Of a DNA stretch of 64,000 nucleotides, positions 26,686 through 32,110 are shown one piece after another. Position 1 is the stretch's first letter, and each line of letters opens with the position of its first letter. Below the pieces are notes generated by a model. The model was given only the letters and a program-made list of their open reading frames with translations. It ran no database searches and was not told the origin of the DNA. The stretch lies in contig OZ245046.1 in NCBI GenBank assembly GCA_965224245.1, positions 192,001 to 256,000 on the forward strand. The letters run 5' to 3'. The stretch is from Candidatus Eiseniibacteriota bacterium. Its GTDB lineage: Bacteria; Eisenbacteria; RBG-16-71-46; CAZAMP01. The position numbers were made by a program, and so were the translations under genes.

Positions 26686-27257
26686 CCGACGTCCCCGGGG
26701 TGTCCGAGCTCACGCGCGAGCCACGAGCGACAGAACTGCCAGCGGCGCTCCACGCTGCGGCGGGACGCGCCGAGCACGTCCGCCGTCTCTCCCACGGTGA
26801 GGCCCGCGAAGTACCGCAGCATCACGACCTGGTAGTCGTCGGCGTCCTCCTCTTCGAGCTTCGACAGCGCCTGATCGAGGGCCAGGAGATCCTCGGGGGA
26901 GGCCTCGTCGACGCGGACGACGTCATCGAGAGGCACCGACCGGAGACCGGCCCCCCGCTTCGCCGTGCCCTTTCGTCGCGCCTCGTCGATGAGGAGGTTC
27001 CGCATGGAGCGCGCTGCGGCGCAGAAGAAGTGATGGCGGCCGTTCCAGGAGACCTGCTGCTGTTCGACGAGGCGAAGATAGGCCTCGTGCACGACCGCCG
27101 TGGTGTCGAGCGTGTCCCCGACGGGCAGGCGCGCGCGCTGGGCGGCGGCCAGCCGCCGAAGCTCCGAGTAGACCGTGGAGAAGACCCTCTCCTCGGCCTG
27201 CGCATCGCCCCCCGCCGCGAGGTTGAGGAGCTGTGAGATGGGTATCGAATCCCCCAT
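26682..27257 (-). CDS. ECF sigma factor, kinase-associated (ECF43/TIGR02999-like)
   Basis: VYSELRRLA, TLDTTAVVHEAYLRL, AKRG and LRYFAGL motifs. Confidence 0.92.
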   Translation of the reverse strand: MGDSIPISQLLNLAAGGDAQAEERVFSTVYSELRRLAAAQRARLPVGDTLDTTAVVHEAYLRLVEQQQVSWNGRHHFFCAAARSMRNLLIDEARRKGTAKRGAGLRSVPLDDVVRVDEASPEDLLALDQALSKLEEEDADDYQVVMLRYFAGLTVGETADVLGASRRSVERRWQFCRSWLARELGHPGDVG

Positions 27258-27475
27258 GGTGCCGGGAGGATAACACGTGCCCCCGGAGGGCCATAGACGC
27301 GCCGCGAGCCACGATCCGGAGAATCTTCTCGAGAATCTTGGCGGGGTCTGGCCCGGATCTCGATTCCCCACTTGAGCAATGGCACGCCCGCCACCGCGAG
27401 GGTGCACCTCGCATCTCACGACAGGAGCAGTCCCGAGTGGGGGATACAGGCTCCAGGACCATCGGAGGCAGTCTC

Positions 27476-29059
27476 ATGATCCGGAATCGTCCAAATGCGG
27501 TGCTCGACCGCTTCGCGCTCACGGTCACCTGTCTGGCGGCCGCGTCGGCCGTCGGGGTGTCCGCCGTCTCGGCGCACGTCATCGACAACTTCGAGCAGGG
27601 AACGTTCGACGTGCTCGCTCCGGCGGGGGCATCGGCGTCGGGCTCGCAGTTCGCGCTCAACCCGTTCAACTGCATCGCCGGCAAGAGAGAGGTGACCGTC
27701 ACCTCGCACAGCGCCTCGCAGCCGGCGAGCGCCGGCCTCAGCCTGTCGCCGCAGGATGACGAGGTCGCCTCGGTCATGCCGGACGAGGGGGGCATCGTCT
27801 CCCTGGTCTACGACATCGGCGCGGACACGGACATCACCGTGGGGGGGACCCGGGATCGCATCCGACTGTCCCTGAGCGTCGCTCCCGACGGCGGCGGCGC
27901 CGACGTCGGTGAGGTCCGGCTGTCGCTCAGCGACGACACCGGGGCGCACCAGTCGGTCTCGCTCCCGTTCGGCGGCCCGGGGAACGTCGACTTCTGGCTC
28001 TCGGACTACCCGAGCGTGAACCTCGTGAACGTCCAGCGCGTGGATGTCGACCTGATCGCGTACCGTGCCGGCGACTACCACGTTCGCGACATCCGTACCG
28101 TCAAGCTGGGAACGCCGCTCGTCTACATCCCGGTGGGATCCACCGAGGTGTCCGGTCCCGGCTATCCCACCGAGCCGCTCCTGTGGGAAGGCATCGCCGA
28201 TCCCGAGGGGGAGACGGCGCCGGGCGGCGCGCTGGCGCTGAAGATCTCGGACGCACAGGTCGATCCGTCGATCCCCTGCGACGACTTCTGCGACGGCGTG
28301 CCCTACGGCCTCTTCACGCTGCCCGCCGAGGTTCCCGGACACTCCGAGGCGTGGGTGCGCTTCGAGGGCGGCTTCAACGACGTGTTCCCCGCCGAGCAGA
28401 CGCTCAGCTTCCAGCTCTCGTTCGAGCCTCCGGCCGATCACACCTACGGAGAGCCGATCTGGAACTCCGTGTGGGTCAACGGCGGGTTCATGGTGGAGAT
28501 GTCGATGGAGCTCTTCGACGGATCCGGAACGTCGCTCGGCATGACGGAGCACCACGTCATGGGCGATCTGATGAACGACCTGTCGCCGGTGCTGTCGGAC
28601 TTCGTCCCGAGCGTCGTCTCCGGGAACGACCTGCATCTGGTGCTCGGTCTGACGCAGGTCACCGGGAGAGTCCGCGGCACGGGCGATTCGACCTCCCGGT
28701 CGTCCGAGGACGCCGGGACGGCCGTCCTGGCCCTGCGCGTCGAGAGCACGGCATCCGCGGAGGTCGTCCTGGACGTGCCCGGCGCGGCGGCCGTCATGCC
28801 GCAGCTCACGGCTCGCCCCACGGTGATGCGGACGCAGACCACATTCGACCTCGCGGGTACGGCGGATGTCGCGCGGAGCCTCGACATCTACGACGTGGCC
28901 GGACGCTCGGTGCGCTCGCTCTCGGTGCCGGCCGGCTCGACGCTGGCCCGGTGGGACGGACGAACCACGGGCGGCATTCGCGTGAGTCCCGGCGTCTACA
29001 TCGCGCGCGTCGCCGGAGCTCGGGGCGGCGCGGGCGCACGGCTCGTGGTCGTTCGTTGA
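27476..29059 (+). CDS. Secreted multidomain protein with CTD; its stop codon is partly supplied by the IS110 end
   Basis: GGAGG RBS; signal peptide; CTD IYDVAGR..WDGRT..SPGVY..RLVVVR. Confidence 0.88.
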   Translation: MIRNRPNAVLDRFALTVTCLAAASAVGVSAVSAHVIDNFEQGTFDVLAPAGASASGSQFALNPFNCIAGKREVTVTSHSASQPASAGLSLSPQDDEVASVMPDEGGIVSLVYDIGADTDITVGGTRDRIRLSLSVAPDGGGADVGEVRLSLSDDTGAHQSVSLPFGGPGNVDFWLSDYPSVNLVNVQRVDVDLIAYRAGDYHVRDIRTVKLGTPLVYIPVGSTEVSGPGYPTEPLLWEGIADPEGETAPGGALALKISDAQVDPSIPCDDFCDGVPYGLFTLPAEVPGHSEAWVRFEGGFNDVFPAEQTLSFQLSFEPPADHTYGEPIWNSVWVNGGFMVEMSMELFDGSGTSLGMTEHHVMGDLMNDLSPVLSDFVPSVVSGNDLHLVLGLTQVTGRVRGTGDSTSRSSEDAGTAVLALRVESTASAEVVLDVPGAAAVMPQLTARPTVMRTQTTFDLAGTADVARSLDIYDVAGRSVRSLSVPAGSTLARWDGRTTGGIRVSPGVYIARVAGARGGAGARLVVVR

Positions 29060-29100
29060 TATGGAACGACCCTGTCAAGGGCACTGATTCGTGATCCCAG

Positions 29101-29131
29101 GGGGCGGCGGAGGCCGCCCCGTTCTTGTTTT
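29101..29131 (+). terminator. IS-borne intrinsic terminator facing host read-through
   Basis: GGGGCGGC-GGAG-GCCGCCCC hairpin followed by GTTCTTGTTTT. Confidence 0.65.
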
Positions 29132-29149
29132 GTACCGGTTTGTTGGAAG

Positions 29150-29365
29150 AGCTCGAGACACCGCGGGGTGATGGCGGCTTCGACGACGAGTCACGCTGAT
29201 GTTCGCGGGTTGAGCCGGCGTCCCGGCCAGAGCCGCATGACTGTGATCCGTCGGGAGGTTGCGCCCTCTAGCATCGTGGGTTCGGGAACGACATTCCGTA
29301 CCACATATCGAAGTCGCGCGCTGTCTCCAGATCGTGCCATCGGTCCGACGGTGCCTCGAGCCAGT
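29150..29365 (-). ncRNA. Candidate bridge RNA/seekRNA
   Basis: Two tandem stem-internal-loop modules (AUGUGG..AACCCACGA and AUGCGG..AACCCGCGA) downstream of the recombinase; loop strands show short matches to target and donor junctions. Confidence 0.7.
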
Positions 29366-30050
29366 GGTCATGTTCGGTTTGTCCCTACGCTGCGGGCCGG
29401 ACGCTCGGATGGAGCACGGCCCAGAGGTATCCCACCAGTTCACGTGCCATGGCCACGATGGTCTTGGGGTGTGGCTTCCCGCGTATCATCATCCGTTTGT
29501 AGTGAGCATGGAGCCGCTCTTGTGAGCGATTGGCAATGGCAATGACCCAGGCGGGTTGATCCTCTCGTCGACGAGCAAGCGGCCCCGAGATCGACGGACG
29601 ATGACGATGGTGCCAGGCCGCTTCGACCAGAAGCCGGCGAACGTGTCCGTTGCCGGTCTTGGTGACGGGTCCACGATCGGTCCGCTCGCCACTGGAGTGT
29701 TCACTGGGAACCAGCCCGAGGTAGGCCGCCAGGGCCCGTGCGGAGCGGAAGCGACGGAAGTCGTGGAGCTCGGCCACCAGGCTAACCGCGGTCACCGTGT
29801 CGATCCCCCGGAAGCACCGGAGCCAGGACACCGGATCTCGATACGGCTCCTGCTGACCACAGCGCTCCATCTCGCGCTCGAGCTGGGCTCGACGCTCGGT
29901 GAGCTGATCGACGGCGAGGAGGTAGGAGTCGAGCGTGGCTTGAGCGGCCGGATCCTCGAACCGAAGCGTGCGCAGCCACGCCATGTGCCGAGAGCCCCAG
30001 TGAACCACGCCGGGTTTGCCGGAGGGTGTATTCCTTGAGAGGATACCTCC

Positions 30051-31384
<1,334 letters not shown>

Positions 31385-31914
31385 CCAGCTCTCCGGAGAA
31401 CCCGGTACGGTTCACAGTGGTGCTTGCTTCCGCGGAAGATGCACTGACGACGAAGCAGGAACTTGCCCAGCCGATGCCGGGTCCGGCACAGATCCTCCCG
31501 GACGTCCGCCCGACAGCGGCACAGATCGCGGAGCGCCTCGTCCTGCTCGTTCGGCGGATGCACCTCGGTCGAGAGCCCGGCGCGGAACAGCTCCGCCAGC
31601 TTGCGAGCATCCCGACGATCGGTCTTGATCCGGCCTCCCGGACGCCGCGGGATCAGCGACGGGACCACCACTGTGCATGAGATGCCCCACTCGGTCAGCC
31701 GGCGCTGGGTCCCGTAGCCGGTGGGACCAGCCTCGTAACACACCGCCAGATCCCCCGGAGCCTCGCGCTCGAGCCGACGCGCCAGTCGGCGCACCGCCTC
31801 CACCGTGTGCGGCTCCTGCCACTGCAGAACCCGATCCGACCCCGGCACCAGGACGGCCACCTGGACCGTCCGTTTGTGTGTGTCCAGACCGACGAAGGTG
31901 GTATCGTTGGACAC

Positions 31915-32040
31915 GACCGGCTCCTTTCGTATGCGGCTCTGGTGCCGCAAGGCGCTAACCCGCGATCTACCGGGGCTTCGACCCCCGTATGTCGGCTGCT
32001 TGCAGCACGACCTTACGATCGCGAGCCGGTCGTTCCATAC
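31915..32040. ncRNA. Structured left non-coding end of the IS110 element
   Basis: Closing stem CGACCGGCTC/GAGCCGGTCG overlaps the RBS; three internal hairpins; contains an antisense copy of the bridge-loop motif. Confidence 0.5.
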
Positions 32041-32080
32041 TGTCTAGCCGACTGCTCGCAACTCGAGAGAAGCTCGGATC

Positions 32081-32110
32081 GGGGGGCGCCGCTCGGCGCC
32101 CCTCTTTTTT
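32081..32110 (+). terminator. Intrinsic terminator, probably the original one for the 27476 gene
   Basis: GGGGGGCGCC-GCTC-GGCGCCCCTC followed by T6. Confidence 0.85.

Follow-up and report, generated by a model that had tools for sequence, protein, structure and literature searches.

A conserved stem-loop module, inverted relative to the bridge-RNA modules, in the recombinase leader of IS1111-group insertion sequences

The insertion sequence and its right-end RNA

The window, by which we mean the whole 64-kb stretch of DNA that was analysed, contains an insertion sequence of the IS1111 group, the recombinase gene of which has been split by an IS3-family element (Table 1). The two pieces of the gene match the Pfam families DEDD_Tnp_IS110 and Transposase_20. 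The inserted element is bordered on both sides by a 3-bp duplication, CAG (29998-30000 and 31415-31417), it contains an ALIL frameshift pseudoknot (114 bits), and its 34-nt ends have identical copies elsewhere in the same genome.

The IS1111-group element has non-coding ends of about 132 nt (left end, LE) and about 328 nt (right end, RE), a short LE and a longer RE being what is expected in this group (PMC11208160, PMC11187229). Each end carries one copy of a subterminal inverted repeat (sTIR). Terminal extensions of 7 nt on the left and 3 nt on the right lie outside the sTIRs, as has been described for the IS1111 group (PMC11187229), and they agree with the consensus termini of 50 relatives, which are CTAGACN-ATATGGAA... 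and ...TTCCATAT-CAG. The ends of the element are also the point at which similarity to two relics in the same genome (L002 and L009) stops; no empty site was recovered. The DEDD and Transposase_20 domains, the sTIRs with their asymmetric extensions, and the long guide-RNA end downstream of the gene place the element in the IS1111 group.

A −35-like sequence, TTGACA, adjoins the right sTIR (29073-29078, − strand), and it recurs in relatives. The circular intermediates of IS1111 elements are reported to form a promoter at their junction (PMC11187229). The recurrent TTGACA fits this published junction promoter, which implies that the sense leader of the recombinase gene is a real RNA.

Table 1. 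Positions in the window of the insertion sequence, its parts and the features of its two ends
Feature	Position	Strand	Basis or remark
IS1111-group insertion sequence, whole element	~29057..32046	−	inactivated by the inserted IS3-family element
Right sTIR	29060..29071	.	12-bp perfect pair; 3-nt extension 29057-29059
Module B 3' flank: ACATCAG and start of the conserved GTGACTCGTCGTCG tail	29190..29202	−	family consensus ATATCAG, the right terminus
RE module B, inner stem-loop of a bridge/seek RNA loop; 3' flank reads the right terminus	29203..29238	−	LE-trained covariance model, 38.1 bits
RE module A, first stem-loop module (ATGTGG...CCCACGA)	29274..29306	−	aligns with module A of L027 and others
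Recombinase gene, C-terminal piece, Transposase_20 domain; stop codon TAG 29385-29387	29385..30000	−	PF02371, E 3.4e-22
Inserted IS3-family element, splits the recombinase gene	30001..31414	+	Pfam HTH_Tnp_1 and rve
Recombinase gene, N-terminal piece, DEDD/RuvC-like domain	31415..31914	−	PF01548, E 1.2e-17
Shine-Dalgarno AAGGAG (31921-31926) and start codon GTG (31912-31914)	31912..31926	−	31912-31923 is the predicted P0 3' strand
LE module: stem P1, internal loop, hairpin P2; antisense to the recombinase gene	31931..31965	+	covariance model, 51.3 bits, E 5.6e-12
Two extra predicted leader hairpins (31991-32012, 31971-31987) between P0 and the module	31971..32012	−	absent in short-leader relatives
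Predicted leader helix P0, 5' strand (GAACGACCGGCTC), overlaps the inner left sTIR	32023..32035	−	RNAalifold and compensatory changes
Left sTIR	32028..32039	.	12-bp perfect pair; 7-nt terminal extension 32040-32046

In aligned relatives the RE contains, in order, a segment complementary to the right flank, a first stem-loop module (module A, AUGCGR...RAC-YCGCG), a copy of the left terminus (CUAGAC), a second module (module B), a copy of the right terminus (AUAUCAG) and a conserved tail. The terminus-like segments change along with the termini in two of the relatives (L023 and L025). In the window a left-terminus-like sequence, GCTAGAGG, comes after module A. Among 31 relatives, 26 have a module B whose 3' flank matches the right junction of the same element; in the window the match is imperfect, with fewer than 6 exact nucleotides (flank ACATCAG, terminus ...CATATCA). 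Given this plan and these junction matches, the RE copy in the window is identified as the inner stem-loop in one of the binding loops of a seek/bridge RNA such as has been published. The window's clade has the long form of module B, with CUCUG and a further hairpin, P2; the form seen in many clades is a plain hairpin, AUGCGG-UAUCCAAC-CCGCG.

The element has the family architecture of the seekRNAs or bridge RNAs described for ISEc11, ISPa11 and ISKpn4 (PMC11187229) and of the RE bridge RNAs predicted in PMC11208160, that is, an RE RNA with two stem-loop modules whose flanks match the target flank and the element's own termini.

The left-end module and its conservation

The motif that forms module B has an inverted copy in the LE, as had been noticed in a preliminary description of this DNA. 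The pattern ATGCGGCTCTGG-N(10-20)-AACCCGCGA matches exactly twice in the 64-kb window, once at the LE module on the + strand and once at module B on the − strand, and it was found in none of 100 dinucleotide-preserving shuffles of the window. The 12-nt arm was recovered as a perfect inverted repeat by a repeat search, and the 9-nt arm was also found, by a script. The same description was right that the inner hairpins of the two copies differ, and that the LE copy is antisense to the recombinase gene and abuts its RBS: the edge of the motif is 4 nt from the Shine-Dalgarno sequence. It was also fair to speak of a third copy, module A being a second and more diverged RE module.

A chance repeat is ruled out by the shuffles and by the conservation in relatives set out below. 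Nor is the motif the classical subterminal repeat of IS1111 elements. It resembles the sTIRs (PMC11187229, PMC11208160) in being an inverted repeat common to both ends of the element, and differs from them in lying further in, as a second inverted pair, and in covarying as a hairpin; the distances to the respective sTIRs are 62 nt for the LE copy and 131 nt for the RE copy. A search of Rfam gave no family for the LE or the RE at E ≤ 5, the sole significant match being the ALIL of the inserted IS3 element.

A protein-based scan of genome contigs yielded 486 relatives among 553 candidate stretches. The best 80 of the 486 were kept, these being 42-59% identical over the N-terminal piece and drawn from many phyla. 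To count as an LE module, a sequence had to have a 4-nt stem whose two strands are perfect complements, with [GA][TC]T following the 5' strand and a CAGAG-like pentamer preceding the 3' strand. Under this strict rule a module with a perfect stem P1 lies just upstream of the RBS in 73 of 81 elements (the window and the best 80 of the 486), in the form of 63 distinct sequences. A covariance model later recovered an LE copy in two of the eight elements missed (L018 and L083) and a weak one in a third (L080), the others being L041, L065, L078, L079 and L087. Among the 63 sequences P1 is GCGG/CCGC in 36, GTGG/CCAC in 17, GTAG/CTAC in 8 and GAGG/CCTC in 2, but complementarity of P1 is part of the detection rule, and these counts are not independent support for pairing.

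Evidence for pairing that is independent of the rule comes from the 32 short-form modules (at most 40 nt) among the 63, aligned with MAFFT. The structure in the antisense orientation pairs 95.2% of the cells, with changes on both sides in 6 of the 12 pairs (64 cells). None of 500 shuffles reached the observed pairing, and slid controls gave 32-48%. Residues outside the helices hardly vary (C...A at the flanks in 62 of 63, GTT in 54 of 63, CAGAG in 56 of 63), and P2 varies freely.

The covariance model was trained on LE copies alone. It also detects RE copies (E ≤ 0.003) in 19 homologous loci as well as in the window, in each case on the recombinase-sense strand, and every one of its LE matches is inverted relative to the recombinase gene. 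It recognises a module in ISSso6, a named element of E. coli and Shigella (34.1 bits), and in an element on a Paraburkholderia plasmid (30.6 bits); two ISEc45-type elements have none at their left ends. The GCGG form of the module is matched by at least 119 metagenome stretches, and 37 of 82 matches in 80 metagenome loci precede an IS110-type N-terminus. Within the window's phylum there is a match in 34 of 151 sampled genomes, often as convergent pairs about 1.3 kb apart. The genome of the window itself has the module at five places, one of them the left end of a 365-aa paralogue.

These comparisons establish the LE motif as a conserved module that, to judge from its pairing pattern, folds on itself, with a P1 of 4-5 bp, a small conserved internal loop and a variable P2. 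It is spread over a large and phylogenetically wide subgroup of IS1111 elements. Its covariance score and its pair counts also give it the predicted stem-loop shape of a binding loop of a bridge/seek RNA. A survey of abstracts and main-text passages from the IS110/IS1111 literature, among them PMC11187229, PMC11208160, PMC12288879 and a 2026 language-model preprint, found no description of an antisense copy at the left end. The results point to a widespread conserved element that lies outside the published two-loop picture.

The recombinase leader and its two strands

Leader structure was predicted with RNAalifold from two alignments, of 13 long-leader and 17 short-leader elements. In both, a helix (P0) pairs the segment just inside the left sTIR with the Shine-Dalgarno sequence and the start codon. 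There are 9 pairs per alignment that have changed on both sides, with compensatory changes such as GC in 9 and AU in 7, or CG in 13 and UA in 3, of 17. The 141-nt leader of the window has a folding energy of −71.9 kcal/mol (z = −5.79), and its complement −69.9 kcal/mol (z = −6.13). The LE module sits at the apex of the leader hairpin, where it caps P0. In ISEc45-type elements P0 is kept without the module. The leader hairpin is thus predicted to sequester both the RBS and the start codon.

Leaders that sequester the Shine-Dalgarno sequence are common in insertion sequences, IS10 and IS50 among them, and with IS10 and its RNA-OUT the present locus has in common a leader hairpin over the translation start and, possibly, a cis-antisense RNA opposite. 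The same likeness holds for IS200, whose leader sequesters the Shine-Dalgarno sequence and which has the antisense RNA art200 (PMC4513863). The two systems differ from the present one in that their antisense RNAs are experimentally defined and have no link to a guide RNA, whereas an antisense RNA is here only putative. In its position opposite the 5' UTR and translation start, and in its predicted stable stem-loop, the LE module does resemble known cis-antisense regulators.

A further parallel is offered by ISPpu9, with Asr9 and Ssr9, and ISPpu10, with Asr10, both of the IS110 group. They are described as having an RNA antisense to a structured recombinase leader that hides the RBS, together with a related sequence downstream of the gene (PMC8450116, PMC12288879). 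In ISPpu9 the downstream Ssr9 and the antisense RNA are complementary, which makes Ssr9 a direct copy of leader sequence. Here, the downstream module is inverted, so that an antisense LE RNA would resemble the module rather than pair with it. Moreover, Asr9 has a mapped promoter and transcript, whereas the antisense LE RNA is putative.

The preliminary description held that the + strand, antisense to the recombinase, is the one favoured by folding. This is correct for the copy in the window: the 37-nt module has −17.7 kcal/mol on the + strand versus −14.7 kcal/mol on the − strand, and the canonical fold, with two G-U pairs and a GCAA loop, forms on the + strand only, the − strand preferring another fold. 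Across relatives, however, the preference is weak and inconsistent. In the 32 short-form modules the structure described above pairs 82.5% of cells when read in the sense orientation, against 95.2% antisense. Of the extra unpaired cells in the sense orientation, 32 are at the invariant C/A position, and in 13 sequences one P2 pair is G-U antisense but A-C sense. The P2 core is more stable antisense in 39 of 59 distinct cores (mean −0.63 kcal/mol, p = 0.02, with kinship ignored), and the RE copies, used as a positive control, gave 13 versus 6 of 22 (mean −1.3). In an independent metagenome set P2 is more stable antisense in 22 versus 13 of 35, with a mean of −0.09 kcal/mol (p = 0.83), and the G-U pairs in that set lean to the sense strand (18/171 versus 11/164 antisense). 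A sign test on the pooled data (61 of 94, p = 0.005) takes no account of kinship or of the mean effect in the metagenome set, which is close to zero. The folding energy of the whole module favours the sense strand in 37 of 63, GNRA or UNCG loops are found in 8 of 22 antisense versus 4 of 26 sense, and the sense fold also has an invariant U-G of its own. As guides to the functional strand, folding energy, G-U counts and tetraloops, all of them uncorrected for relatedness, therefore give inconsistent results.

Scanning with one sigma-70 consensus, which leaves room for promoters of other kinds, covered the antisense strand downstream of the module in three elements (ISSso6, one from Paenibacillus and that of the window) and found no sigma-70-like promoter; a sigma-70-type scan of 13 AT-richer elements found none that is conserved in position. 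Among sequencing runs recorded as RNA, none was found that contains the region. It is worth adding that the sense strand is certainly transcribed, as the leader, and that a function on the sense strand is the simpler assumption as far as expression is concerned.

Possible functions of the left-end module

The comparisons support well the view that the LE motif is a paralogue of the bridge-RNA stem-loop, inverted and without guides, and that it caps a leader hairpin predicted to hide the RBS and start codon. It is probably an accessory regulatory hairpin, which aids the control of recombinase production rather than the choice of insertion site. As to how it may act, our tentative preference is for a recombinase-binding mimic without guides, read from the antisense strand and serving as a decoy or antisense regulator. 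A decoy, or second recombinase-binding RNA, was among the possibilities raised in the preliminary description, and it may still be called the leading one. In such a mechanism, the LE hairpin would work on the antisense strand, where it would mimic the stem-loop that binds the recombinase. A putative RNA antisense to the leader would carry the hairpin. By binding the recombinase as a decoy, by pairing with the leader, or in both ways, this RNA would gate the translation and the activity of the recombinase.

The hallmarks that the LE module has in common with the RE modules are seen on the antisense strand. Read there, the LE's invariant C...A corresponds to the U-G that closes modules A and B, and its GUU to their AAC, which stands before the 3' strand of the same stem. 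The differences from the RE modules are that the LE module lies at the opposite end and on the opposite strand, that it has no guide flanks, and that it is embedded in the recombinase leader. The bridge RNA of IS621 likewise consists of repeated units of stem, internal loop and stem-loop, each of which is thought to hold a recombinase dimer; its two loops are both in the left end, on the sense strand, and have programmable guides, whereas the LE unit described here is antisense and guide-less. The CAGAG/CTCTG loop of the LE is nearly invariant even in clades whose RE module has no CTCTG, and module mimicry leaves this loop unexplained.

The LE module is probably not essential for the chemistry of transposition. 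A mini-element of ISEc11 with 50 bp of LE and 46 bp of RE is reported to move when the recombinase and seekRNA are supplied (PMC11187229). In ISSso6, taken as a named stand-in for ISEc11 whatever the relation between the two, the module lies at about bp 53-85. A MITE-like derivative in the window's genome has kept the right-end RNA and the left terminus and has no LE module. Taken together with the ISEc45-type elements, which also have none, these observations fit a dispensable, regulatory part. In the ISEc11 work the construct was a T7-driven one for the sense strand, and the RNA that co-purified came from the 3' non-coding region (PMC11187229); such a design does not bear on an antisense LE RNA.

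RNA-guided recombinases of the IS110/IS1111 type are in development as tools for genome editing, and their natural regulation is poorly known. If the LE module is bound by the recombinase or by the bridge RNA, these elements have a built-in control, a decoy or a feedback operator, which would be relevant to their expression and activity in other hosts.

A different proposal places the function on the sense strand. The apex of the leader (UCGCGGGUU...CAGAGCCGCAU) would act as an operator that pairs with module B, in cis (5' and 3' UTR of one RNA) or in trans, and translation or RNA processing would be set by whether module B is free or bound to the recombinase. We regard this as rather unlikely, although it has several attractions. 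Both RNAs are on the strand that is transcribed from the junction promoter described in PMC11187229, and no further promoter would be needed. The unpaired loops are complementary (GUU with AAC, CAGAG with CUCUG) and could nucleate pairing, and the C...A of the LE would be Watson-Crick partners of the G and U that are likewise invariant in the RE. In the window, 20 of 21 positions are complementary between LE and RE, and in one relative (L025) all 21.

The comparison of the two ends across the family weakens the proposal. Sixty elements combine an LE module with an RE that can be read, and in 42 of them the pattern of module B was found, these copies not being dereplicated. The variable stem pair of the LE is not that of the RE in 23 of the 42, and each copy stays self-complementary, so that the change is compensated inside the copy and leaves central mismatches between the two (for example, LE GTGG and RE GAGG in three elements, LE GAGG and RE GCGG in one). 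Over the 21 Watson-Crick positions, cognate ends have a complementarity of 14.5 versus 14.3 for non-cognate ends (permutation p = 0.066, for 35 distinct LE/RE combinations, 5 of which were scored with the 11-nt string out of register), and cognate ends are thus no better matched. The perfect 12+9 match seen in the window is the upper extreme of the family and not its norm. The consensus common to LE and RE nevertheless keeps the copies largely complementary, so that pairing may still occur. The same minor variants arise independently in LE and RE (AAC/AAU, CUCUG/CUCGG/CGCUG, and the second stem pair), and there are many clades in which the LE module is complete and module B, lacking CUCUG, is no more than a plain hairpin. 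The independent variants and the differences in 23 of 42 elements suggest two sites under the same constraint rather than partners selected to pair, and the lack of co-variation between the copies argues against pairing of leader and bridge RNA as the main constraint. The suggestion in the preliminary description that the bridge RNA pairs with the mRNA leader is in keeping with the complementarity within the window and weakened by the family as a whole.

A plainer explanation, and in our view an improbable one, is that the module is purely a structural cap. The leader hairpin would hide the RBS and guard the recombinase gene from read-through expression, and the likeness to module B would be the relic of an old inverted duplication. 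The compensatory changes in P0, with the module capping the hairpin, the retention of P0 without the module in ISEc45-type elements, and the general occurrence of leaders of this kind in insertion sequences, as in IS200 (PMC4513863), all agree with it. It leaves unexplained why the C...A, GTT and CAGAG residues are nearly invariant across phyla, and why these invariants are the exact complement of those of the RE modules (U-G and AAC). Even so, this ordinary reading would still account for silence of the element when integrated: the sTIR pairs with the RBS and the module caps the hairpin.

It is very unlikely that the motif acts at the level of DNA, either as a second subterminal repeat bound by the recombinase or a host factor, or as a single-stranded hairpin in copy-out transposition. 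An inverted repeat at both ends is like the transposase-binding sites of other elements, the lack of a clear strand asymmetry would fit a DNA hairpin, and a copy-out pathway with top-strand transfer has been proposed for an IS110 element (bioRxiv 10.1101/2025.10.25.684509). On the other hand, the spacing between the LE half-sites ranges from about 8 to about 50 nt, which is unfit for a dimer on duplex DNA; P2 shows the covariation of a hairpin; the two copies of the motif are at unequal distances from their sTIRs; and 50 bp of the ISEc11 LE are reported to suffice in cis (PMC11187229).

More speculative still, and to be given little credence, is an outward antisense transcript that would start near the start codon, carry the hairpin at its 5' end, and run through the left terminus into host DNA, which would give the recombinase a self-programmed RNA complementary to the left junction wherever the element is inserted. 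Such a transcript would be a third, location-aware partner of the bridge RNA, serving excision or the sensing of the integrated state and not target choice. The ISEc11 mini-element data (PMC11187229) bear on this reading only in showing that it would not be required for movement.

Least credible is the suggestion in the preliminary description of an extra guide, that is, a third programmable loop that would carry a target or donor guide on an antisense RNA; it shares the architecture of the two RE modules and lies next to TTTCGT, which resembles the window junction GTTCGT, and it is largely refuted by the flanks of the module. Flanks of 12 nt, read antisense, were compared with the element's own junctions, a match being at least 6 nt: the 5' flank matches in 2 of 41 and the 3' flank in 2 of 41, versus the 26 of 31 given above for module B. 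To judge by these comparisons the LE flanks are not guide-like. The module is not on the recombinase-sense strand either. The TTTCGT is indeed present (31925-31930, +), but the 5' flank is the complement of the spacer and Shine-Dalgarno sequence (ACGAAAGGAG). Since ACGAAAGG(AG) is kept in relatives with unrelated insertion sites, the likeness to GTTCGT is a coincidence. The 3' flank of the module pairs within the leader hairpin.

Leader helix and paired stem-loops

The coordinates of the features discussed here are collected in the table. The leader hairpin of the recombinase gene is closed by a basal helix, P0. In this helix the Shine-Dalgarno sequence and the start codon pair with the inner portion of the left subterminal repeat, and the pairing shows covariation across relatives. 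The left subterminal repeat thus has a second role, as an anti-SD sequence.

In many elements the left-end (LE) and right-end (RE) stem-loop copies point towards each other as a convergent pair, with about 1.3 kb between them. Examples lie in the metagenome contigs L152 and L173 and in G106, G130, G013 and G032, among others. The covariance model trained on left-end copies usually scores the LE copy of such a pair higher than the RE copy. Two relics lie in the window's own genome. L002 has retained the LE module, with an inner hairpin (P2) that is different and fully compensated. In L009, the right-end RNA region is fused to a left-terminus segment of about 30 nt, with neither the recombinase gene nor an LE module.

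Features of the element, its surroundings and its relics
Feature	Position	Strand	Basis or remark
TTGACA, perfect	29073-29078	minus	immediately inside right subterminal repeat
GC-rich hairpin, then T-run	29097-29135	plus	by eye; within right end of element
Right-end RNA region	29176-29330	minus	compared with loci L019-L093
IS3-family element	30001-31414		orfA/orfB and ALIL frameshift pseudoknot, 114 bits
Leader helix P0	32023-32035 with 31912-31923	minus	covariation in relatives
Second terminator	32081-32104	plus	terminator scan; just beyond left end of element
L009, MITE-like derivative	C1:910932-911116		own genome
L002, degraded left end	C1:4318877-4319001		own genome

Right-end RNA and candidate junction promoter

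The right-end RNA of the clade has a common order. A right-flank guide comes first and is followed by module A, with a left-terminus copy (CTAGAC) behind it; then come module B, a right-terminus copy (ATATCAG) and a conserved tail. In loci L023 and L025 the terminus copies vary in step with the termini themselves. The window's own right-flank guide (..CTTCGAT) shows only a partial match to the flank now present (reverse complement ..GTTCGTT).

The right-end TTGACA is found at the same position in relatives, including ISSso6. This is consistent with the -35 half of a promoter that would be made at the junction on circularisation; no convincing -10 could be assigned in the left terminus of the element.

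Insertion site, candidate terminators and the IS3-family insertion

The upstream ORF (27233-29059) ends in a TGA stop codon (29057-29059) that occupies the same three positions as the right terminal extension predicted for the element, and therefore the IS1111-type element is inserted exactly at the end of this gene. L011, a right-end relic elsewhere in the genome, follows the end of another gene whose C-terminal tail is similar.

The hairpin and T-run at the right end would block transcription that enters the element from the host in the direction antisense to the recombinase gene. The terminator beyond the left end may have belonged to the upstream host gene and been displaced from it.

The IS3-family element interrupts the IS1111-type recombinase gene, with a 3-bp duplication (CAG). 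Identical copies of the 34-nt ends of this element are present at five other places in the genome, so that it is multicopy and has probably been active recently.
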